From an uncultured Spirochaetota bacterium (GTDB lineage: Bacteria; Spirochaetota; Spirochaetia; SZUA-6; Fen-1364): a DNA stretch of 64,000 bases. Each line of letters begins with the position of its first letter. The stretch's first letter is position 1. A program made the translations under genes and the position numbers. The notes under the pieces were generated by a model. The model saw nothing but the letters and a program-made list of their open reading frames with translations, was not told the DNA's origin and did not search any database. Shown piece after piece: positions 21,224 through 63,511 of the stretch. The DNA is taken from the NCBI GenBank assembly GCA_963820525.1, contig CAWGAA010000001.1, forward strand, positions 1,056,001 through 1,120,000. The letters are read 5' to 3'.

Positions 21224-22216
21224 GTGAAGGTTCTTTTCACGGGTATTCAACCCACCGGCGATATCCACATCGGAAACTTCTTCGGCGCAATCAGGAACTG
21301 GGTGGACATCCAGGCGCGGTACCGATCCTACATCTCCATCGTGGACCTTCACGCCGTCACGATTCCCTATGAGGCGGCCGAGATGCCCGCCCGGGTCTCC
21401 GAGCTGGCCATGACGCTTTACGCATGCGGCATCGACATGGAAAAGACCACCCTCTTCGTGCAGTCCGAGGTGCCGGGCCACGCGGACCTCACGTGGCTGT
21501 TCAACTCGATCACCCCGCTGGGAGAGCTGGAGAGGATGACCCAGTTCAAGGACAAGGCCGCCCAGTTCAGGAAGACCGTGAACGTGGGGCTCCTCGACTA
21601 CCCCGTGCTCCAGGCCGCCGACATCCTCATCTACAAGGGCGAGGTGGTCCCCGTGGGCGAGGACCAGGTCCAGCACGTGGAGTTCACCCGGGAGGTGGCG
21701 CGGCACTTCAACTCGCGCTACGGCGACACGTTCCCCGAGTGCGAGGCGCTCCTCGCCTCCTCCCCCCGGATCGTGGGGCTGGACGGCGAGTCCAAGATGA
21801 GCAAGAGCAAGGGAAACACGATCGGCATCCTGGAGACCCCCGAGGAGATCTGGGCAAAAATCGCACCGGCAAAAACCGACCCGGCGCGGATGCGCAGGAG
21901 CGATCCCGGGCATCCCGACCGGTGCAACATATTCTCCTATCATGGGCTTGTCACCCCGAGCGCCCAGCGGGAGGAGATCTCCGCCGGGTGCACGTCCGCG
22001 GGGATCGGCTGCATCGACTGCAAGAAGATGCTGCATGCGAACCTCATGAAGGTCCTGGACCCCATCCGCGAGCGTCACAGCGAGCTTGCCGGCGGCCGAA
22101 GGGCCGAGGTGAGCGATCGGCTGGAGGCAAACGCGGAGGCGTGCAGAAAGGTGGCGGCCCAGACCATCCTCGAGGTGAAAGGGAAAATGGGGTTGAAGAA
22201 AGTATGGAAAATCTAG
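21224..22216 (+). CDS. trpS: Tryptophan--tRNA ligase
   Basis: GIQPTG, HIGN, VPVGEDQ, KMSKS. Confidence 0.96.
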   Translation: MKVLFTGIQPTGDIHIGNFFGAIRNWVDIQARYRSYISIVDLHAVTIPYEAAEMPARVSELAMTLYACGIDMEKTTLFVQSEVPGHADLTWLFNSITPLGELERMTQFKDKAAQFRKTVNVGLLDYPVLQAADILIYKGEVVPVGEDQVQHVEFTREVARHFNSRYGDTFPECEALLASSPRIVGLDGESKMSKSKGNTIGILETPEEIWAKIAPAKTDPARMRRSDPGHPDRCNIFSYHGLVTPSAQREEISAGCTSAGIGCIDCKKMLHANLMKVLDPIRERHSELAGGRRAEVSDRLEANAEACRKVAAQTILEVKGKMGLKKVWKI

Positions 22217-23541
22217 AGCCCGATCTGAAGGACCTGCGCGTCGAAAGCCTGGGAGAGCCCTCTCTCCCCTCCCCCCTTGGACTGAGCACCGTCTATGGGG
22301 ACGACACGGCGAACTACGTTGATGACAGCCAATCCGTCCTGATGCTTCAGGACAGGGACGAGGTGGTGGCCCGGGTCAAGCAGGGGAAGCCTCTCCCCGC
22401 CTTCGAGCGGGCCGGACCGAGGCAGAAGATCTACTTCGATTCGGCGAAAACCCGCGCCGCGATCGTCACCTGCGGGGGGTTGTGCCCGGGAATCAACAAC
22501 GTCATCCGCACGCTGGTGATGGAGCTGTTCTACCGCTACGGCGTGAAAACAGTTTTCGGCATCAGGTACGGATTCCGCGGGTTCATCCCCCGCTATGGGT
22601 ATGAGCCGATGGAGCTCACCCCGGAGACGGTCCGCGACATCCACGAAAAGGGGGGGAGCATTCTCGCCTCCTCGCGCGGGGCGCAGGACGCCGGGGAGAT
22701 CGTCAATGCCCTGACGCGGATGAAGGTTTCTCTCCTTTTCGTGATCGGCGGGGATGGAACCCTTCGGGGAGCCAATGCCGTTGTCAAAACGATACGGGAG
22801 CGGAACCTCTCCATCGCCGTCATTGGCGTCCCCAAGACGGTTGACAATGACATCTCGTTCGTGGAGAAGACCTTCGGACTGGAAACCGCCTTCTCGGTGG
22901 CGGGTGAGGCGATCCGAAGCGCCCACACGGAGGCCATCGGGGCTCCGAACGGAATCGGGATCGTCAAGGTGATGGGCAGGGGATCGGGGTTCATCGCGGC
23001 CAACGCCGCGCTCGCGCTGAACGAAGTGAACTTCGTGCTCATCCCGGAAGTTCCCTTCGCCCTGGAGGGACCCCGCGGGCTCTTTTCCTGCCTGGAGGAG
23101 CGCCTGCGCAGGAGAGGTCACGCCGTGATAATCGTGGCCGAGGGAGCCGGACAGGAATATGTGACCGACCCTTCGGGAAAGAAGGACGAATCGGGAAACC
23201 TCGTCCTGGGAGACATCGGCATTTTCCTCAAGGACGCGATCAAGCGTTACTTCAGGGAGCACACCGACATCTACGTGAACATCAAGTACATCGACCCCAG
23301 CTACCTGGTGCGCTCCGTGCCCGCCAACTCCAACGATTCGATCTTCTGCATGCAGCTTGCGCAGAACGCCGTGCATGCCGGGATGGCGGGAAAGACCGCC
23401 ACGATCATCGGCCTGTGGCACGGCCAGTTCACCCACGTGCCCATCCAGCTTGCAGCCTCACGAAGGAAGTATCTCTCTCCCGAGGATCCCCTCTGGCTGT
23501 CGGTCATTGAGAGCACGGGCCAACCCGCCCGCATAGGGTAG
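22204..23541 (+). CDS. pfkA: ATP-dependent 6-phosphofructokinase, long spirochaete-like clade
   Basis: TCGGLCPG, GGDGT, PKTVDND, MGR; true start ATG at 22204 (MENLEP). Confidence 0.92.
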   Translation: MENLEPDLKDLRVESLGEPSLPSPLGLSTVYGDDTANYVDDSQSVLMLQDRDEVVARVKQGKPLPAFERAGPRQKIYFDSAKTRAAIVTCGGLCPGINNVIRTLVMELFYRYGVKTVFGIRYGFRGFIPRYGYEPMELTPETVRDIHEKGGSILASSRGAQDAGEIVNALTRMKVSLLFVIGGDGTLRGANAVVKTIRERNLSIAVIGVPKTVDNDISFVEKTFGLETAFSVAGEAIRSAHTEAIGAPNGIGIVKVMGRGSGFIAANAALALNEVNFVLIPEVPFALEGPRGLFSCLEERLRRRGHAVIIVAEGAGQEYVTDPSGKKDESGNLVLGDIGIFLKDAIKRYFREHTDIYVNIKYIDPSYLVRSVPANSNDSIFCMQLAQNAVHAGMAGKTATIIGLWHGQFTHVPIQLAASRRKYLSPEDPLWLSVIESTGQPARIG

Positions 23542-34317: not shown

Positions 34318-34419
34318 AAGAGAAAAATCCGGGTGTGCCCCGTACGCGGGGCGCCCGGTTTCGATCAAAGCACCACTCATGTCCGCCCTCGTGCGGGTCC
34401 CTCCAGCTTGAACCCTGGC
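34318..34419. repeat. REP/MITE-like GC-rich repeat, copy 2
   Basis: Direct degenerate copy of 30498-30606. Confidence 0.75.
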
Positions 34420-34424
34420 AGCGG

Positions 34425-35266
34425 ATGAAACATAATCGGCCGCATAGAAGACGTTGACCGGCCCATCATCTCGGGAAGCGACTCGCCCATACCTGCCGGA
34501 TACTTCCGGATAATCCTTGTCCGGCAGGGCGCCGTGAGACTTGCGCAGGGAGGGGAGCGGAGGATCGTTCTGCCCCGAAGCGCCATCTTCATTCCTGCCG
34601 GCGTGTCGCGATGCATCGAGGCCGGAGGCGGCGCGGAGCTCGCGCAGGTGGCCTTCTGCAAAAGCGTCCTGGACCCGGAGATGCTGGGAGAGGCCGCGGA
34701 CGAGCTTTTTGCCATGCTTGGCTTGGGGCGGAACCCGGCGGCCCCTGAACCTTTAATCCGCGTCGCCCGCCTCCCACCTACCGCCTTCGACGAGGCGTGC
34801 GCTCTGCTGAAGCGTATCGAGGCAGAGCGCGGACAGAAACGGCCGGGAAGAGAGATCATGCAGAGGCTCGCCCTGGTGGAGCTCCTCGTTGTCGTTTATC
34901 GCTGCTTCCAATCAGGGCAGGAGGCACAAAACACCGGTCCCGCACGCTTCAGGATCGCGGAGGCGGTTGGCTACATCAGGGACCGCTACGCGGAGGAGCT
35001 TTCTCTACCTGAGCTCGCTTCCCGCTTCGGGCTCAACCCCAGCTACTTCTCGCGCCTCTTCACCAGACATACCGGCCTGCACGTCTTCGAGTATCTGAAC
35101 AGGATCCGCATCCAGAAAAGCTGCCTGCTGCTGAAGCGCTCTTCCATGAGCATTTTACAGATCGCGTTCTCCGTGGGCTATAACAACCTCTCCCATTTCA
35201 ACAGGTACTTTCCGGCGGATCATGGGAATGAGCCCGCGCGAGTACAGAAATCGAAGCGTAAAGTAA
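34425..35266 (+). CDS. AraC family regulator with two apparent +1 homopolymer frameshifts (about 34428 and 35210)
   Basis: LSLPELASRFGLNPSYFSRLF and IAFSVGYNNLSHFNRYF HTHs; removing one T restores RRIMGMSPREYR; removing one A restores an ATG start at 34425. Confidence 0.8.
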
Positions 35267-35343
35267 AAAAAGTATCAGTTTAATCCCGAATGGTGCCGGA
35301 ATCCGCATCCCGAAAAGCCCATACTTTCAATCAAGGAGGCGCC

Positions 35344-35577
35344 ATGGAAAAGCTTGAACAATTCCTGGAGGAATCCCCGATCGCAATACGGGTTACGCTC
35401 CCGACCAAAATCATCGTGCATGAGCTGAAGCTCAGTTACGCGGCCTTCGCGCCTTCCAACGGAAAAGTGTGCGAGCTGGAGGTGGGCGGCCGGCGCATCG
35501 CCAGGGGCAGAATCGTGCGCAGACGGGGTGAGTACTTTTTCAAGGTAGGAGAGATGGCGAAAGGAGGCGCGCAATGA
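35344..35577 (+). CDS. Divergent SpoA (FliM/FliN C-terminal)-like small protein
   Basis: [25 protein letters not shown]...FFKVGEM resembles the SpoA C-terminal strands. Confidence 0.65.
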
Positions 35578-35825
35578 AGCTGGGTCACCTGAAAGAAATC
35601 GGGGTTGAATTGAGAGTCGAGCTGGGCAGGGCGACGCGCAGCCTCGCCGACGTGGCGGGGATCAGCGAAGGAACAATCATTGAGCTGCACAAGCTTGCAG
35701 GCGAGCCGGTGGATCTCCTTGTCGCGGGTGAGCTCATCGCAAAAGGTGAAGTGGTGGTGATAGACGAGAGCTTCGGGATCCGCGTCACCGAGATGGTGGA
35801 AAAGGAGAAGGAGGCCGGAGAATGA
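35574..35825 (+). CDS. fliN: Minimal FliN-like protein
   Basis: [48 protein letters not shown]. Confidence 0.88.
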
Positions 35826-37642
35826 CCGACGCCCTGCACCAGATCAAGATCTACGATTTCAAAAGGCCGGACAAGTTTTCCAAAGACCAGATACGCACCG
35901 TCTCCATCATGCACGAGACCTTTGCGCGCCTGACAACCACCGCCCTATCGGGGCAACTGAGAAGCCTTTCATCCGTTCATGTGGCTTCGGTGGACCAGCT
36001 CACCTATGAGGAGTTCATCCGCTCCATTCCCAACCCGGCCACGATCGCTATTCTCTCCCTGTATCCGCTGAAGGGCTCAGCGCTGCTGGAGATCGACCCG
36101 GCAATCACCTTCTCCATCATCGACAGGCTGTTCGGCGGACAGGGGGACGGATGGAAGCTTTCGCGGGAGATCACCGGCATCGAAAGCTCTGTGATCGAGG
36201 GCAGCGTCGTCCAGATGCTCGGCGCCCTCCCCGAGTCCTGGAAAAACGTGATCGACCTGAAACCCGGGCTGACGCGCATAGAGACCAATCCCCAGTTCGC
36301 TCAGGTCGTGCCGCCGCATGAGATGATCGTGCTCGTGTCCCTTTCCGTGGAAATGGGAGAGGCGCGGGGAATGATGAACCTCGCCCTTCCCTACCTCACC
36401 ATCGAGCCGATCATCCATAAGCTTTCAGCGCAATACATGTACTCAGTGTTCAGGAGGAAGGGCAGTCCCCAGATGGCCAGGGCTTCCTTCAAGCTGGATC
36501 TTCCCGTCGAAGTTTATCTTGAAGGGGCAAGGCTTTCTCTGCGCGATCTGGGTGGGTTGAAGAGAGGCAGCCTCGTGAAGATTTCCGGTTACCGGCAGGG
36601 CAAGGCGTTCCTCCGCATGGGCGGGCGCACCCTCTTCGGCCTGAAGGCCCGGCCCGGCGGGAGGGGAAAGCCTGCAACCTACGAGGTCGTGAGCGGGGTT
36701 TCAAAAGAAAGCATACCCTTCCTCGAGCCCATAGAGAAAATAGGCGAACCCTCGGAGCTGGAAACCATAGAGGCGGGGATGCGCGAGGCTTTGCTGGAGC
36801 TGGGCTCCAAGATAAGCGAGTCCCTTGCCGGCATGAAAAACTCCATCGGGGCGCTGCAGAAGAAGCAGGACGAGATGGCAGACCAGCTGGCTTTCGGAGC
36901 GCAGGAACAGGAAGCCCCCGATATGAAGAGAGGCGCGGAGCATGCAAGACCGTTCGACTTCCTTGGCCGGGCGGACCCTGAGCACTTCCTGAGCGTCATC
37001 CAGCACGAGCACCCGCAACTGATAGCGCTGATCCTCTCCTATCTCGAGCCGCAGAGGGCTTCCGCCATCCTCGGAAGTCTCCCTGCGGAGCTTCAGCCCG
37101 ACGTGGCAAAGAGGATTGCCGGCATGGGCCGTACCCATCCCGAGGTCCTCCGCGAGGTGGAGCGGGCATTGGAGAAGCAGCTCTCCGTGCTTTCCTCGGA
37201 GGACTACGCCGAGGCGGGCGGCGTGGAGGGCCTGGTCGAGATCCTCAACATGGCGAATCGCTCCACGGAGAGATTCGTGGTCGACTCGCTGGAGAAGAAG
37301 GACGCGAAGCTGGCCGAAGAGATCAAGCGGAGGATGTTCGTCTTCGAGGACATCGTGCTTCTGGAAAAAAAGGACGTGGAGAAAGTGGTGAAGAAGGCGG
37401 AGACGGACGTCCTGCTCCGCGCCATGAAAGCCGCTCCCGATGAAGTAAAGACCTTCATCTGGGGATGTCTGCCGCCTGAGGACGTGGAGAGGCTCACGCT
37501 GCGATTGAAAGAGCTGGGTCCGGTCCGGCTGCACGAGGTGGAGCGTGCCCAGCAGAGGGTTGTCGGCGTGATTCGGGAGATGGAAGAGGCTGGAGAGATC
37601 GTCGTGGCCCGAGCGGGTGAGCAGACGAAGATCGTGGAATAG
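35822..37642 (+). CDS. FliM(middle+SpoA)-FliG(middle+C) fusion protein
   Basis: [23 protein letters not shown] and IETNPQFAQ (FliM), then EHPQ, GG, MFVFED and GPVR (FliG) in one uninterrupted 606-aa ORF. Confidence 0.88.
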
Positions 37643-39640: not shown

Positions 39641-42118
39641 ATGACAGACAGACAAGAGTTGCAGAACGAGATCTCACGCGAGGATACCCGGCTCACCGTC
39701 CTCAAAGCCGAAGTGGAGAAAAGCAACACCCGCTTAAACGCGCTTCGTGAGCAGCTCGCCGCTGAGCCGCCCCTGCAGATCGCCGTCCCCAGGCTGCCGG
39801 CTCCAGAGACAACACCGACACCGATGACGAATGCGGCCAAGGTCGCCCTTTTCCGGTCGCTTTTCCGAGGCCGCGAAGACGTCTTCCCGCGACGCTGGGA
39901 GAACGCGAAGAATGGCAAATCCGGCTACTCACCGGCCTGCACTAACGAGTGGGAGTACGGATTGTGCGCGAAGAAGAAGGGGCTCAACGCCAGCCGGCGT
40001 GTTCACTGCTGTGAGTGCCCCAGCCAGGCATTCATCCCGGTTTCAGACGAGGAGATCGCCAAGCACCTGCGAGGGGACCAGATCATGGGGGTCTATCCCC
40101 TCCTGCCAGACGATACGTGCTGGTTCCTCGCAGCCGATTTCGACAAGAAAACGTGGCATGATGATGTCATGGCGTTTATCGAGACCTGCGACACACACGG
40201 TATCCCCGTGGCGATCGAGCGATCCCGCTCGGGCAACGGCGCGCACGCCTGGTTTTTCTTCGCATCGCCTGTGCCCGCGGCAACAGCACGCAAGCTCGGC
40301 TGCTTTCTCATCACCGAGACCATGGCACATCGGCACCAGCTCTCGATGGAATCGTACGATCGCCTATTCCCCAACCAGGACACCATGCCGAAGGGCGGAT
40401 TCGGCAATCTGATCGCACTCCCTTTCCAACGTCATTCGCGCGACGCGGGCAACACCGTGTTAGTCGATGCCGTCCGAAAGCCCTGGTCCGATCAGTGGAC
40501 CTTTCTCGCCGGCATCAAGCGCCTCGATGCGACCTTCATCCACGCCCTCGCCGAAGAGGCCGCGAGTCGCGGGCAGGTGATCGGCGTCCGTGTAAGCGAG
40601 ACACTCGACGATGACGATCTGACGCCCTGGACCCGACCGCCTTCCGGACGCCCGAGAAAGGTCGTGATCACCGCGCCCCTACCTCCTAAGGTGAAGGCGG
40701 TCCTGAGCCAACGCTTGTTTATCGAGAAGGCCGGTTTGCCGTCGCCCCTGCTCAACGAGCTCAAACGCCTTGCTGCATTCCAGAATCCAGAGTTCTACAG
40801 GAAGCAGAGCATGCGCCTCTCAACGGTGCTCACGCCCAGGGTGATCGCGTGTGCCGAGGACTCCCCCGAACACATCACTCTTCCGCGCGGCTGTTTGCCC
40901 GATGCCGAGGCTTTGCTTCGCCAGAATGGAGTCGCGATAGATGTCAAGGACAAGCGTGAAGGCGGGACGCGGTCGACTTCGCATTCCAGGGCACCCTCAC
41001 CCCACTCCAGGAGTTTGCCGTGAAGGCGCTCCTCGAACATGATACCGGCGTGTGTGTCGCGCCGCCGGGCGTCGGCAAGACCGTAGTCGGCGCGTACCTA
41101 ATAGCAGCCCGGAAGACTAGCACGCTCATCCTCGTCTATCGCAAGCCGCTCCTCGACCAGTGGATCGGCCAACTGTCAATGTTCCTCGGCATCGGGCCCA
41201 AGGACATCGGCCGGATCGGCGCGGGGAAATCTAAACCCAATGGCCGGCTCGATGTGGCCATGGTCCAGAGCCTCGCGCGAAAAGGGAAGGTCGCAGATCT
41301 CGTCGCAGGCTACGGCCAGGTAATCGGTAATCCAAGACGAGGTCCATCATGCACCGTGTGTGAGCTTCGAGCGTGTTCTGGCCGAGGTGAAGGCCAGGTA
41401 CCTCGTCGGCCTCACCGCGACTCCACAGCGCCGAGACGGGCTCCATCCCATTCTCCACATGCAGCTCGGTCCGATCCGGTTTACGGCAGACGCGAAGAGC
41501 CAGACAGCCCAACGGCCGTTCGACCACAAGCTCGTCGTCAGAGAGACGGGGTTCTCACCCACTGGCCACACGGCCGATGCTGGAATCCAGGAGCTCTACG
41601 CGGCACTCGCCGCCGACAAGAAGCGCAACGACCTCATCTTCGACGACGTGCTGTGTGCTCTCGAGGAGAAGCGCTCGCCCATCCTGCTCACGGAACGGCG
41701 GGAGCATTTGGAACACTTCGCCGACCGGCTTCAACGCTTCACTTGACATCTTATCGTGCTCCACGGCGGCATGAAAGACAAGGAGCGACGTGAGGTTCTC
41801 TTGAAGCTCGCCGGGATCCCCGACGGAGAGGAGAGGCTTATCATCGCGACCGGCAGGTACATCGGCGAAGGCTTCGACGACGCCCGGCTCGACACCCTGT
41901 TTCTCGCGTTGCCTGTCTCATGGAAGGGGACGCTCGTCCAGTACACCGGCCGGCTGCATCGCCTGCATGCGGGCAAGACCGAGGTTCGGATCTACGACTA
42001 CGTTGACAGTGCGGTCCGGATGTTGTTGAAGATGTTCGAGAAGCGGCTTCGCGGCTACAGGGCGATCGGATACGTCCGTGACGAGGAGGTGCTTCGAAAC
42101 CCCGAGGATAGGACATGA
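39641..42118 (+). pseudogene. AEP primase-like domain + SF2 (ResIII-type) helicase, TOTE-like, disrupted
   Basis: LFRGREDVF, CWFLAADFD, ERSRSGNGAHAW, GFGNLIALP, PPGVGKT, DEVHH, GLTATP, EGFD, QYTGRLHR; frameshift near 40965, ggtaatc duplication near 41318-41331, in-frame TGA at 41744. Confidence 0.82.
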
Positions 42119-46385: not shown

Positions 46386-46637
46386 CTACCCCGTGCTCTT
46401 CAGCTCCTCTCTGAGGATGCGGCGAAGGGTTTCCACGTCCAGCGGACGCGCTGACCTTCCCAGATACTCACGGAGGGCATCGTTTATCATGGTCTGGTAT
46501 CCCCGGCCGGCGGCATCCGCACGGTTGCGGAATTCCTCCAGAATCTCATCATCAAGGTAGATGCTGATCCTGCTCTTCCCTTTCTGAGGGATGACCGCCC
46601 CCCGCTTGGCCTTGCTGAAGTCATATTCCTTCCTCAT
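46386..46637 (-). CDS. BrnA family antitoxin
   Basis: MRKEYDFSKAKRG..ISIYLD..GYQTMINDALR. Confidence 0.9.
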   Translation of the reverse strand: MRKEYDFSKAKRGAVIPQKGKSRISIYLDDEILEEFRNRADAAGRGYQTMINDALREYLGRSARPLDVETLRRILREELKSTG

Positions 46638-46893
46638 AGTTTTTCCTCTCACTCCTCGTCGCGGTCCTGGCCGAAATCAGCCGGATTGTCTGACCGCGAT
46701 AGGAGTAGACAATGACAACAATCCGGCCTGATGAATCCGTCCCCATGGACACGAACCGTTGCTCGCCGCGAGCCTGGGAATCCTCCCTTGTGAGGGCAAA
46801 GGGATCAAAGAGCACCGCCTCGGCGTCGGAGAAGCGAATCCCATGCTTCCTTTGATTCGACGCAGCTTTCCGGGGATCCCACACAACTTGCAT
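46621..46893 (-). CDS. BrnT family toxin
   Basis: WDPRKAASNQRKHGIRF..EQR..IRLISARTATRSERKNYE; TTGATA-17-TATGCT promoter at 46928-46900. Confidence 0.9.
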   Translation of the reverse strand: MQVVWDPRKAASNQRKHGIRFSDAEAVLFDPFALTREDSQARGEQRFVSMGTDSSGRIVVIVYSYRGQTIRLISARTATRSERKNYEEGI

Positions 46894-47142
46894 ACTCAGA
46901 GCATATACATACATTATACATATATCAAGTGCCTGACGGCAATCGGAATACGGAGGGACGCAGGCAAAGTCGTATGGGGCCGCGAAAGCGAAATCATCGC
47001 TGAGCGGGTAGACGCTGGAGCTTAGACTCAAGGATTTCCGAATGCGATGGCTGCGAGTGAAAGGCTGTACAGATGCGGCCTTGGAAAGCACAAGCTTTGT
47101 ATTTGCATGCTCCGGCTCCCTTTGTGCATGAAGCATAGCAAG

Positions 47143-58769: not shown

Positions 58770-59130
58770 GCCGTCTACGCCGTGCGAGAACTCGTTGTCG
58801 GAGGTGAAGCAGATTACGGTGCCAACTCCGTTCTCATCGATGCTTATCTTTTTCAGCGACAGCGGGGGTCGAGCGATGCATTGGACAGGGCCTCGCGGCC
58901 TCTGATCGAAAAAGCCGAAATGCGGATGGAATGGTCCACGGAAAAACCAGAGTGCATCCAGTTGATGAGGCTGGTGGCCAGATGCGCGTTGATCAGCTCT
59001 TTCTTCAGGAACCCGCACTTTCATTGCCTCGTTGTGGAAGTTTGTCCATATCCCCCTTCGACGATATCCAGCGGATGTCGGAGTACTTCCGTCGAGTGGT
59101 CATCAAGTTTTCCATAGCAAAAATTCGCTA
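58770..59130 (-). mobile_element. Second, decayed IS91-like transposase fragment
   Basis: LINWMHSGFSVD..R and IARPPLSLKKI in broken frames. Confidence 0.6.
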
Positions 59131-59359
59131 AGGTATCAAAGGACCGGCTCCTTCTTCCAGCTCTGCCCGCCCGTTCATCCTCGTCATGCGCTCCCTGACG
59201 CACGGCGTCCCTGCTGCGCGTCCCCGCCTGCTCGGCGCCGTGCTTCGCAAGCGGAGCACGGCCGGCAGAGGAATGAGCCCTCATATAATGTGGGGAAGGA
59301 GGGGGTCGCAGGTACGGGTCCGTTTGCCTTGGACCGCAAATGGCAATATACTGTGAAGA

Positions 59360-59952
59360 ATGTCACGACGGGCAGGAGCCACCAGCGCGTGATGATACTG
59401 GAGGTGATGGGACGCACCGCTGGATGGATCGCGCTCGAGGCCGGGATTTCGGGCGGCGCACATATCATTCTCATCCCGGAGATCCCCTATTCCATAGATC
59501 GAATAGTCGAGAAAATCCAGCTCAGAGAAAAGGGAGGCAGCCCCTTTACCATAATGATGGTGGCTGAGGGCGCCCACGAGGAGGGCGGTGACGTCATCAC
59601 ACAGGCATCCGCCTCAACGCGGCTTCAGGGCGTTGTCCAACTCGGAGGGGTCGGATTCCATATCGCCGACGCGATAAAAAAGCGCATAGATCTTGAGGTT
59701 CGCTGCACGGTTCTTGGTCACATTCAGCGCGGGGGATCGCCCTGCGCCTTCGACTGCGTTCTGGGGACAAGGTTGGGCAGCTACGCCGTATAGGCCGCAG
59801 CGGAAGCGAAATTCGGCACCATGGTAGCCCTGAAAACCCCGGATATTGCCTTGGTTCCACTTTCGGAACTTGCGGGGAAAGTACGCAGGGTCCCGCCTGA
59901 TTCACAGCTCATCCAAAGCGCGGAGCTCATTGGAATCAGCATGGGGAGGTGA
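59360..59952 (+). pseudogene. 6-phosphofructokinase C-terminal fragment
   Basis: SHQRVMILEVMGRTAGWIAL, LGHIQRGGSP; N-terminus missing; in-frame TAG at 59791. Confidence 0.85.
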
Positions 59953-62362: not shown

Positions 62363-63511
62363 CTACGCCGCGCCTTTTGCCTTCTGCGCCTGAGCGCTTT
62401 CCACGCTCACCCCGATGGCCCAGATGAATCCCAGCATCTCGCGTGCCACCGCAGTAACCACTTCCTGTCTTGATTTGCCTTTGCCCAGCAGGTGCATATA
62501 GCGGCTATGAAGGCGGTGACGTGCCTTCGATGCAACCTCCTGCACTTCCGCACTCAGGCCTTCCTGGCGCTTGCGCATGGCGAGGCTGAGCACTGGTTTG
62601 TAGCGTTGGGACCACGCCGCTTCCACTATGACGCGTCGCAAATGGGCGTTGCCGGTCTTGGTAATCCCTCCGCGGCGAGTCTTGCCGCCGCTGGAATGCT
62701 CGCTGGATACCACCCCGCTGTATCCCATGAGCTGACGCGGGTGCTCAAAGCGCGACAGCGTGCCCAATTCGGCCACGATCGTCACCGCCCCCACCTTCGC
62801 CACTCCCCGAAGCGCCTGCAGCGCTTGGATGAGTTCACGCATGCTCTCCGGCGCCTGCTCGACTGCCTCGTCGATCGCCTTCTCAAGCCGGACAATTCGT
62901 ACGCTAGTATGCTCCACTTCGTTGAGGTAGTCCTCCAAGGTCACCTGCTGGGGCCGCTGATCGAAGCTCACCTCCCGTTTGATCCAGTCGAGGTACTGTT
63001 GCGTCCACGACCGCATTGTCTGCGGCGGGCGTTTGCCATGCCGCAGAAGGTATTTCCCAAGTCGATGGCGAGCTCGGAGTTGGTCTTGCTTTGACGCCTC
63101 CCGCGCACGCACCAGGTCTCGCAGTGCCTCGTGTGCCGCATCGGGCACCCACACCGGCGTTAGCTCCCCAGCCCGAAAGCTGCAAGCCAACCGCTCGGCA
63201 TCCCGCCTGTCGGTCTTCACCCGATCCCCTGCCTTCGTTGGCACCAGTGTCGGCGCTATCACCACACAGGGGATCCCCAGCTTCGTCAGTTGCCAGTACA
63301 GCGTGTAGCCCGTCGGTCCGGCCTCGTAGCAAGCCGCCCACGCGCCCCCCTCATTGAGTTTCTTCACGAGCTTTCGAACGCTCTCCTCCCGATTGGGGAT
63401 GCTCCCGAGCCTGCGGACTGCCTCATCCTTTTCCGCCATCGCCGCCACGATGGTCTCCGCATGGGCATCGAGCCCTACAAAACGCCGCACTGCTGTGATA
63501 GCCTTCTTCAT
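62363..63511 (-). CDS. IS110 family transposase/recombinase
   Basis: VGLDAH, CYEAGPTG, KTDRRDA (DEDD), SEHSSG, ITKTGNAHLRR. Confidence 0.95.
   Translation of the reverse strand: MKKAITAVRRFVGLDAHAETIVAAMAEKDEAVRRLGSIPNREESVRKLVKKLNEGGAWAACYEAGPTGYTLYWQLTKLGIPCVVIAPTLVPTKAGDRVKTDRRDAERLACSFRAGELTPVWVPDAAHEALRDLVRAREASKQDQLRARHRLGKYLLRHGKRPPQTMRSWTQQYLDWIKREVSFDQRPQQVTLEDYLNEVEHTSVRIVRLEKAIDEAVEQAPESMRELIQALQALRGVAKVGAVTIVAELGTLSRFEHPRQLMGYSGVVSSEHSSGGKTRRGGITKTGNAHLRRVIVEAAWSQRYKPVLSLAMRKRQEGLSAEVQEVASKARHRLHSRYMHLLGKGKSRQEVVTAVAREMLGFIWAIGVSVESAQAQKAKGAA

Follow-up and report, generated by a model that had tools for sequence, protein, structure and literature searches.

Within the genome of an uncultured wetland bacterium of the Spirochaetota, two proteins of the flagellar C-ring, FliM and FliG, are encoded as one polypeptide by the last gene of a compact, four-gene cassette. 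The stretch of DNA analysed here (termed the window) comprises 64,000 nt of assembly GCA_963820525.1 (contig CAWGAA010000001.1, positions 1,056,001-1,120,000, forward strand), and the cassette occupies window positions 34534-37642, where the list of open reading frames (ORFs) contains four co-directional genes: an AraC regulator, two small proteins (termed here A and B) and the fusion. That these four genes constitute an accessory cassette of spirochaetes is well supported.

The C-ring is the best-studied bacterial motility switch; its parts are normally separate, are strongly conserved and are tied to FliF, MotA and CheY. By its predicted domains, the cassette is shown to encode the complete parts of a C-ring wall-and-base protomer minus three couplings, namely (i) that of the FliG N-terminal domain (FliG_N) to FliF, (ii) that of the torque helix to MotA, and (iii) in the window gene, that of the FliM N-terminal peptide (FliM_N) to phosphorylated CheY (CheY-P). 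The interpretation preferred here, to which a probability of roughly 0.4 is attached, is that the fusion may serve as a conditionally expressed, torque-inert and anchorless C-ring protomer that modulates the motor.

The cassette and the architecture of its fusion protein

The features of the cassette, in window coordinates, are as follows.

34534..35283 (+): AraC/XylS-family regulator, 249 aa, with a C-terminal double helix-turn-helix (HTH_18; PF12833, 1.4e-20; PF00165, 5.1e-11)
35344..35577 (+): protein A, 77 aa, divergent SpoA/FliN fold (PF01052, E 0.0067, below cut-off)
35574..35825 (+): protein B, 83 aa, FliN-type SpoA domain (PF01052, 3.9e-21; TIGR02480, 88.0 bits against a cut-off of 84.05)
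35822..37642 (+): fusion, 606 aa, a single chain ordered as FliM middle domain (FliM_M), FliM C-terminal domain (FliM_C), long helix, FliG middle domain (FliG_M) and FliG C-terminal domain (FliG_C)
35852..36424 (+): FliM_M, residues 11-201, with the GGXG motif (G105, G106, G108; PF02154, 1e-71)
36503..36700 (+): FliM_C-like SpoA region, about residues 228-293, strongly diverged (located from the TIGR01397 alignment and the strands predicted by AlphaFold2, termed here AF2)
36755..36892 (+): single 46-residue helix predicted by AF2, residues 312-357, running from FliM_C to FliG_M
36977..37198 (+): FliG_M, residues 386-459, with EHPQ at 396-399 (PF14841, 2.2e-27)
37283..37603 (+): FliG_C, residues 488-594, with the MFVFED hinge retained (PF01706, 1.5e-32)
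37466..37519 (+): remodelled torque helix, residues 549-566, which by column counts replaces the canonical NMSKRASTLLKEDMDYMG
34408..34436 (+): weak sigma-70-like site upstream of the AraC gene, the sole such site in the region

Genes A and B, and likewise B and the fusion gene, overlap by 4 nt, and all four frames are intact; these coordinates agree with a first-pass annotation of this DNA, which had described three overlapping genes following an AraC regulator. A longer, 95-aa reading of A from 35290 is possible; the 77-aa reading is nevertheless taken to be right because an AGGAGG stands 6 nt 5' of the ATG at 35344 and because the corresponding Met is the start in 15 of 15 homologues. A scan for promoters and terminators gave results at chance level (one sigma-70-like site, against a mean of 0.9 in shuffled sequence). 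Among the 48 ORFs of the window that were scanned against Pfam there are no other flagellar genes, which bears out the earlier statement that the cassette lies away from them.

Both of the equivalog cut-offs, for FliM and for FliG, are passed by the one chain. Residues 6-283 of the fusion match positions 31-309 of the 320-position FliM model TIGR01397 (259.3 bits; cut-off 219.6), and residues 372-602 match positions 106-335 of the 338-position FliG model TIGR00207 (245.4 bits; cut-off 226.7), with IYDFKRP beginning at residue 9. Among the structures of the Protein Data Bank (PDB), those matched by sequence include Thermotoga maritima FliG_MC (1lkv, 2.8e-58) and FliM_M (4fq0, 4fhr and 2hp7, about 1e-40). 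The AF2 model of the fusion has a mean pLDDT of 84.1 and a pTM of 0.59; Foldseek superposes it on 4fhr_A (TMt 0.93, rmsd 1.6 Å), 4fq0_A (TMt 0.96) and 1qc7 (TMt 0.86-0.94), and aligns it with full-length Salmonella FliM chains over about 297 columns.

Three things were missed in the first-pass annotation: a putative FliM_C is still present, a 46-residue helix leads from it to FliG_M, and the charges of the torque helix are gone throughout the family. The putative FliM_C is traced by the TIGR01397 alignment, which continues to position 309 of 320, and by AF2 strands at residues 229-292 (pLDDT about 86), PF01052 not being reported there at E <= 0.01. The helix that follows, modelled in a block with pLDDT 60-82, would be about 69 Å long at 1.5 Å per residue, and two of its residues, Q349 and D354, are conserved at 90% or more within the family.

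FliG_N was not found in the fusion: the TIGR00207 match begins only at model position 106, and a PF14842 match at residues 398-478 falls on the FliG_M repeat. The linker was also considered as a possible remnant of FliG_N and was rejected as such, inasmuch as alignment of residues 290-378 with canonical FliG by hhalign yields a probability of 0.8%. The earlier observation that the FliG N-domain is missing is thereby upheld.

The possibility that the fusion is merely an artefact, with fliM and fliG joined during assembly or gene calling, is negligible: the same frame recurs in 120 listed database matches, in 91 cluster representatives and in 14 other genomes. Short-read contigs from run X1, which may be the source sample, reproduce the window without a difference at 34833-35586, 35665-36300 and 36639-36923. 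A 782-nt contig from another study (X3, 14 differences) spans 36764-37545; it starts in the linker helix, takes in FliG_M and ends within FliG_C. A chimeric junction, which the first-pass annotation had named as a danger, is thus excluded.

Conservation of the fusion and of the cassette

A search of a collection of 5.8 billion proteins found FliM, FliG_M and FliG_C together in all 120 of the best matches listed (41-94% identical to the window fusion), as the first-pass annotation had proposed to look for, and 117 of these matches are 580-660 aa long. Among the best 150 representatives from a library clustered at 50% identity, FliM is followed by FliG in 91, of which 86 are 545-658 aa long. The corresponding ESM Atlas cluster has 130 members (FliM in 100%, FliG_M in 100% and FliG_C in 94%), with Spirochaetota the commonest phylum. 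The fusion occurs in 10 of 40 relatives belonging to the same family or order (twice in one of them, G024) and in at least 4 of 300 other genomes evenly sampled from the phylum (E <= 1e-90), the latter count being a lower bound that leaves aside 70 weaker matches. A metagenome scan with alignment A1 retained 80 loci, of which 77 were canonical fliM or fliG and three were fusions (L098-L100), each too distant for a proper dN/dS; a scan of genome contigs with a single fusion protein returned only Bryobacterales fliM. The architecture is widespread in uncultured spirochaetes and is patchily distributed.

Eighteen related loci were examined (11 from relatives, four from the wider phylum and three from metagenomes). 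Wherever upstream DNA is present, the fusion is preceded by A and B. In all 15 loci for which the flank is present, an AraC gene adjoins the cassette in the same orientation--mostly upstream, and downstream in L036, L095 and L097--so that the synteny with AraC suggested earlier holds beyond the window. An all-against-all comparison of ORFs in the window and the first 11 loci revealed no further shared neighbour gene.

Proteins A and B and the AraC regulator

Protein A is, as judged from profile comparisons, a divergent SpoA protein whose homology extends over the whole domain: its family aligns with that of B with an hhalign probability of 96% (E 4.1e-9, 76 columns), and its profile retrieves T. 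maritima FliN (1yab/1o6a, E 0.013-0.015) from the PDB. In the ESM Atlas the cluster nearest to A is a family of 80-aa proteins that has no name, counts 158 members and is commonest in Spirochaetota. The AF2 model of A is weak (pLDDT 64.8), and its top Foldseek rows are SpoA proteins, none of them significant (best E 0.09). The window copy of A has a 9-residue in-frame deletion that is absent from all 15 homologues.

Protein B is 62% identical (by blastp) to the FliN domain, residues 287-362, of the FliY encoded by the same genome, and this identity indicates that B probably derives from that domain of fliY. Across its 15 orthologues the mean column identity is 65%. The N-terminal 130 or so residues of the AraC regulator match no Pfam family at E <= 0.01; by eye, the AraC homologues have a short, half-cupin-like N-terminus, the copy in L100 being longer.

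Residues retained and residues lost

Which regions the fusions have kept may be gauged at those columns that are invariant in the canonical proteins; the canonical set consists of 28 FliM sequences from spirochaetes and 19 FliG sequences from the order, without those of G030 and G037. The mean share of the canonical residue that is kept in the fusions, region by region, is:

FliM_M: 0.80 (137 canonical-invariant columns)
ARM_C and hinge: 0.70
last FliG_C helices: 0.66
FliG_M: 0.60
first FliG_C helices: 0.34
torque-helix region: 0.22
FliM_C: 0.21
FliM_N peptide: 0.20

Within FliM_M, the GGXG motif contacts FliG_M. In the window fusion it reads LFGGQGDG, and across 71 sequences G105 is invariant and both G106 and G108 are conserved at 90% or more. 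The corresponding EHPQ of FliG_M is likewise conserved in the 118 fusions compared (E in 113, H in 115, P in 115 and Q in 118), as are the GG linker (G466 in 106 and G467 in 113 of the 118) and the MFVFED hinge (M in 109, F in 117, V in 116, F in 116, E in 116 and D in 118; M505-F508 in the window).

The torque-helix region retains only one of 20 canonical-invariant columns. In the canonical helix R is present in 21 of 21 sequences, E in 20 and D in 19; at the same three columns the commonest residues in the 118 fusions are A (35), E (30) and S (11); A (43), K (15) and S (13); and R (61), D (10) and A (9), the window fusion having E553, L560 and R561. A few deeper members have an intermediate helix (e.g., NMSTKAADALKEAMAVMG). 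By these column counts the canonical charges of the torque helix are lost family-wide, along with FliG_N. The equivalents of K264 and R297 of Escherichia coli are kept (K in 112 and R in 105 of 118). In the E. coli protein the charged torque-helix residues facing MotA are R281, D288 and D289.

The retained K264 and R297 equivalents, together with the fact that the new torque-helix pattern is shared by the family rather than random, might suggest an alternative rotor unit that still receives torque through a helix matched to a paralogous MotAB stator, and this genome does have a second MotA/MotB pair (C3:571.6-573.2 kb). The second stator, however, lies beside a 710-aa FliG_C-like protein of its own, which among the 40 relatives occurs only in G013, G014 and G018 and in none of the 10 cassette carriers; none of the 18 loci has a stator gene linked to the cassette; and, without FliG_N, torque could not pass to FliF. 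This alternative is accordingly regarded as quite improbable, and a link between the cassette and the second MotAB locus was rejected because the three relatives (of 40) that have the FliG_C-like neighbour of that locus all lack the cassette. The locus itself (L178, C3:569457-573222) encodes the 710-aa protein, with a weakly FliG_C-like C-terminus (PF01706, 4.2e-5), followed by MotA (265 aa) and a MotB/OmpA-like protein (247 aa).

The N-terminal peptide

The window fusion has only 10 residues before YDF, and positions 1-30 of TIGR01397, which correspond to the CheY peptide, are unmatched; the earlier observation that the LSQxEID peptide of FliM is missing here is therefore correct. The genome's own FliM and FliY both have a CheY-type peptide. 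Within the family, 12 or fewer residues precede YDF in just five of 118 members, and a CheY-type peptide is found in 20 of 118, among them all but one (P0007) of the 11 nearest full-length relatives, P0002-P0012. The N-terminus of the window protein resembles that of P0003 (MNDALSQDAIDQLL...ADQRKIKIYDF) with the middle removed. Because the nearest relatives keep the peptide and because of this resemblance, loss of the CheY peptide from the window gene is judged to be recent and lineage-specific.

In about 36 of 118 fusions (as counted with a loose pattern; e.g., P0067, P0080, P0087 and P0112) a second N-terminal motif, approximately (V/L)KGSEI(I/L)G...EY.VK, precedes YDF. This KGSEIIG-type motif occupies the site at which other members have the CheY-type peptide.

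Origin of the fusion and the genome's other C-ring genes

The first-pass annotation had called the cassette a paralogue and had recommended looking for the canonical genes; fliG (C1:617.8 kb), fliM (C1:607.7 kb) and fliY (C1:606.5 kb) are indeed present on the same contig, at a distance of about 440 kb. Three matches to FlaA, the sheath protein of the periplasmic flagellum, are found in the same genome, in keeping with its being that of a spirochaete, and cassette-bearing relatives possess a canonical motor as well (separate fliG in 10 of 10 and separate fliM in 8 of 10). The fusion is 60% identical to the genome's own FliM and 52-60% identical to its own FliG.

In a FliM tree of 78 rows (a quick IQ-TREE run under LG+G4, comprising every fourth of 117 database fusions plus the genome fusions), the fusions form one clade (SH-aLRT 95) within spirochaete FliM, with Acidobacteriota as the outgroup; row L050 of this tree is the fusion of genome G281. 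In a FliG tree rooted with the FliG1-like paralogue, 37 fusions fall on one side of a branch (88) as sister to the FliG2 of the order. Both halves thus apparently descend from spirochaetal fliM and fliG2 with a single origin, long branches making the details unsure. Of 20 relatives compared, 18 have a canonical FliG that shares 85-97% identity with the genome's own (in G030 and G037 the value is about 50%). For the fusion, identity to the window copy is no more than 37-69% in 10 of these relatives. From these identities it is plain that the fusions have evolved much faster than the canonical genes.

Other C-ring-like genes are scattered through the genome. A full-length FliG1-like paralogue (C3:111606-112772, +), about 30% identical to the FliG part of the fusion, has a counterpart in nearly all of the 40 relatives and agrees with the FliG1/FliG2 pair known from Treponema pallidum. 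A 401-aa protein (C3:911742-912947, -) has two SpoA domains (FliMN_C) followed by a FliM_M-like part (YDF..PDKFS), that is, a reversed domain order. An 88-codon frame (C1:2688088-2688351, +) matches the torque-helix part of FliG_C (PF01706, 7.1e-7, model positions 18-92).

State of the window copy

It might be asked whether the cassette in this genome is a functionless duplicate undergoing slow erosion. Several features would fit such decay: in-frame deletions specific to the window (nine residues in A, and in the fusion the region of the N-terminal peptide), the broken state of the nearest genomic copy (in G024, contig C4) and of the copy in G029, a rough dN/dS of 0.45 and the patchy distribution of the family. 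The dN/dS value derives from comparison of the fusion with a strain about 97% identical (11 synonymous and 14 non-synonymous differences), and it rests on these 25 listed of 43 differences, between contigs that may mix strains. Against erosion stand the four intact frames with their 4-nt coupling overlaps and the small number of departures from the family at highly conserved columns--1 of 110 in the fusion (the fewest of 71 sequences), 0 of 28 in B and 2 of 17 in A (equal to the median)--as well as the AraC gene, which relative to the same strain has 10 synonymous and five non-synonymous differences. Only a slim chance is therefore given to decay, and we regard the window copy as a functional member of the family whose input end has been trimmed. 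An absence of purifying selection, which the first-pass annotation had said would count against its proposal, was not found; functional motifs are conserved across the family.

The two decaying loci differ in form. In L027 (G024:C4:266000-285999), the nearest genomic copy, AraC is split over three frames, and B has been joined by a deletion to about residue 105 of the fusion; G024 retains a second, intact cassette (L028). L033 (G029:C122) has a frameshift in FliG_C and a deletion through which B continues in frame into the fusion.

A possible mechanism

According to the interpretation preferred here--a conditionally expressed, inert protomer that modulates the motor--the AraC regulator would turn the operon on under a particular condition, and the fusion would then form C-ring-type arrays, or enter existing ones, at the motor of the periplasmic flagella. 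The contacts used would be those of FliM_M with its GGXG, of FliG_M with its EHPQ, of ARM_C with its GG linker and MFVF hinge, and of SpoA pairing with A and B; the 46-residue helix and its flexible flanks would be long enough to reach from the SpoA base back up to FliG_M atop FliM_M. Having no FliG_N, the protomer would lack an anchor to FliF and the MS-ring; having no torque-helix charges, it would lack normal coupling to MotA; and in this genome it would also lack the docking peptide for CheY-P. From these three absences it would follow that the protomer is both mechanically and sensorially inert. Such inert units would dilute or displace working FliG-FliM units, leading to lower torque or to a fixed rotational bias. 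Passages of PMC7355467 describe the torque-helix charges as the main determinant of rotor-stator interaction, FliG_N as co-folding with the FliF tail and setting a 1:1 match between the rings, and FliM and FliN as exchanging dynamically in working motors.

A number of observations weigh against this interpretation. Entry of the fusion into the flagellar C-ring, as opposed to a separate structure, is only putative, and no RNA run was listed that holds this stretch of the window. In FliM_C, 10 of 11 canonical-invariant columns are altered and one is retained; such divergence, together with dedicated partners A and B, might keep the fusion apart from the canonical ring. A pattern of its own, C-x-P ... 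K-A-R-L-E, has been acquired by the torque helix and is common to the family (R being present in 61 of 118 members); this is a hint of a new partner, not of inertness. Because 20 of 118 members retain a CheY-type peptide (an LSQ-D/E-x-I-D-x-LL-like motif, counted as xSQ-D/E-x-I-D/E-x-LL-like), sensory inertness fails as a property of the whole family; hence the term 'chemotaxis-blind', as applied in the first-pass annotation, fits the window gene, from which the peptide is missing, but does not describe a family trait. Finally, the rough dN/dS of 0.45 given above and the decay of two of the 18 related loci (L027 and L033) also count against it.

Several of these same observations would be accommodated by a free-standing, C-ring-like assembly, independent of both the MS-ring and the stator, having a role outside the motor. 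Such an assembly might act as a cytoplasmic scaffold or sink for soluble partners (CheY-P in those members that have the peptide, FliH/FliI or FlhG), or as a co-regulator of its own AraC protein. It is consistent with the absence of FliG_N from every family member seen; with a diverged FliM_C that has dedicated SpoA partners in A and B; with a FliG_C surface whose remodelling is common to the family and is not random decay; with N-terminal peptides that vary (CheY-like in 20 of 118, KGSEIIG-like in about 36 of 118 and others short), as would be expected of a diversifying input port; and with strict linkage to an AraC regulator whose N-terminal 130 or so residues have no Pfam match. Yet FliM_M (0.80) and ARM_C (0.70) remain near canonical, the 62% identity of B to the FliN domain of FliY makes cross-assembly with the motor plausible, and carriers are found only in flagellated lineages (a trivial observation within Spirochaetota). 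On balance a free-standing assembly is the leading alternative but seems doubtful. A signalling or regulatory device made from motor parts--in which a ring apart from the rotor would combine a new FliG_C surface, an exchangeable N-terminal input port and feedback upon AraC--is considered unlikely.

Relation to known systems

The canonical C-ring protomer, FliG-FliM-FliN/FliY (Salmonella structures 8umd, 8umx, 8wiw and 9n49; T. maritima structure 4fhr), has the same domains and folds as the cassette proteins: FliM_M, a FliM_C-type SpoA domain (putative and strongly diverged in the fusion), FliN-type SpoA partners, FliG_M with EHPQ, ARM_C, the GG linker and MFVF hinge, and the FliG_C bundle. The cassette differs from it in that FliM and FliG are one polypeptide rather than two, FliG_N is absent, the R, E and D of the torque helix are replaced and a 46-residue helix has been added; moreover, it has its own A, B and AraC regulator, lies outside flagellar clusters and, in the window gene, has no FliM_N peptide. 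Diagrams in part of PMC8789113 show ordinary domain arrangements for FliG and FliM.

As a lineage-specific, extra copy of rotor proteins in spirochaetes, the cassette is reminiscent of FliG1 and FliG2 of Treponema pallidum (TP0026/TP0400), where the extra rotor-protein copy is discussed, in a portion of PMC1943423, as making motors differ. FliG1, however, is full-length, stands alone, is about 30% identical to the fusion and occurs in nearly all relatives, whereas the fusion is FliG2-derived, truncated, joined to FliM and present in 10 of 40 relatives.

Fusions of switch proteins have also been obtained in the laboratory, including Salmonella FliF-FliG fusion and deletion-fusion strains (described in part of PMC7355467) and engineered FliM(SpoA)::FliN constructs (PDB 4yxb and 4yxc; described in part of PMC5990795). 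Like the cassette protein, these join neighbours covalently, and they still assemble rings; they stay torque-competent, are engineered or spontaneous laboratory mutants, and join FliF to FliG or FliM_C to FliN rather than FliM to FliG_M.

Among database proteins are other natural C-ring fusions, which resemble that of the window but differ in the order or content of the parts joined. P0155 and P0224 are single chains with FliM, two SpoA domains, FliG_M and FliG_C; P0179 (1123 aa) has these same parts plus a true FliG_N (PF14842, 3.7e-35); and P0199 is another long single chain with a true FliG_N (PF14842, 3.2e-26). The window family, by contrast with P0179 and P0199, has no FliG_N, and its A and B are separate genes. 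In P0145, P0210 and P0241, three to five DUF4116 repeats stand between the FliM and FliG halves.

In type III secretion systems the base is likewise built from several unequal SpoA domains, namely those of SctQ and SctQ_C (1o9y, 3uep, 4yx1 and 4tt9), and the weak model of A matches SctQ-type structures alongside FliN, none significantly. No other injectisome part is present, however, and the flagellar ancestry of B and the fusion is clear.

No natural FliM-FliG fusion was found in the full-text literature searched (which does not cover subscription journals), and database entries for the family are labelled 'FliM' or 'FliM/FliG'. The design of the cassette is thus apparently undescribed; the concern that it might already have been characterised as an ordinary switch component found no support in a describing paper within that literature.

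Other features of the window

The DNA flanking the cassette contains several genes that are outside it. Upstream is an NAD(P)H-binding gene with no close orthologue in the relatives (48% identity or less). About 2 kb downstream, at 39641-41790 (+), is the primase of a TOTE conflict system (PF22548, 4.4e-95) with a helicase fragment. This neighbour prompted a reading of the cassette as a defence system, which was rejected: PADLOC matched no family for any of the four cassette proteins, and the neighbours are not conserved. The variable DNA downstream also includes an ORF with a BrnT toxin domain (46624-47136, -) and an IS110-family transposase (62366-63511, -). A 253-aa ORF (59032-59790, +) matches only the C-terminal half of the phosphofructokinase (PFK) family (model positions 148-274); 36 kb upstream of it is a gene with a full PFK domain (21424-23538, +), and the 253-aa ORF may be a gene fragment.

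Implications

What distinguishes the cassette is that it drops exactly three points at which the C-ring is coupled to other components and keeps the core with which rings are built. The covalent join from FliM_C to FliG_M through a helix of about 69 Å provides a natural distance constraint upon C-ring topology, and studies of co-variation and structure could draw on the roughly 90 diverse sequence clusters of the family. If the fusion acts outside the motor, then motor parts would have been reused for another job. If, on the other hand, it enters motors, it would constitute a genetically encoded way to disable or to bias rotor units, a reading that bears on the means by which spirochaetes obtain different behaviour from the motors at opposite cell poles.

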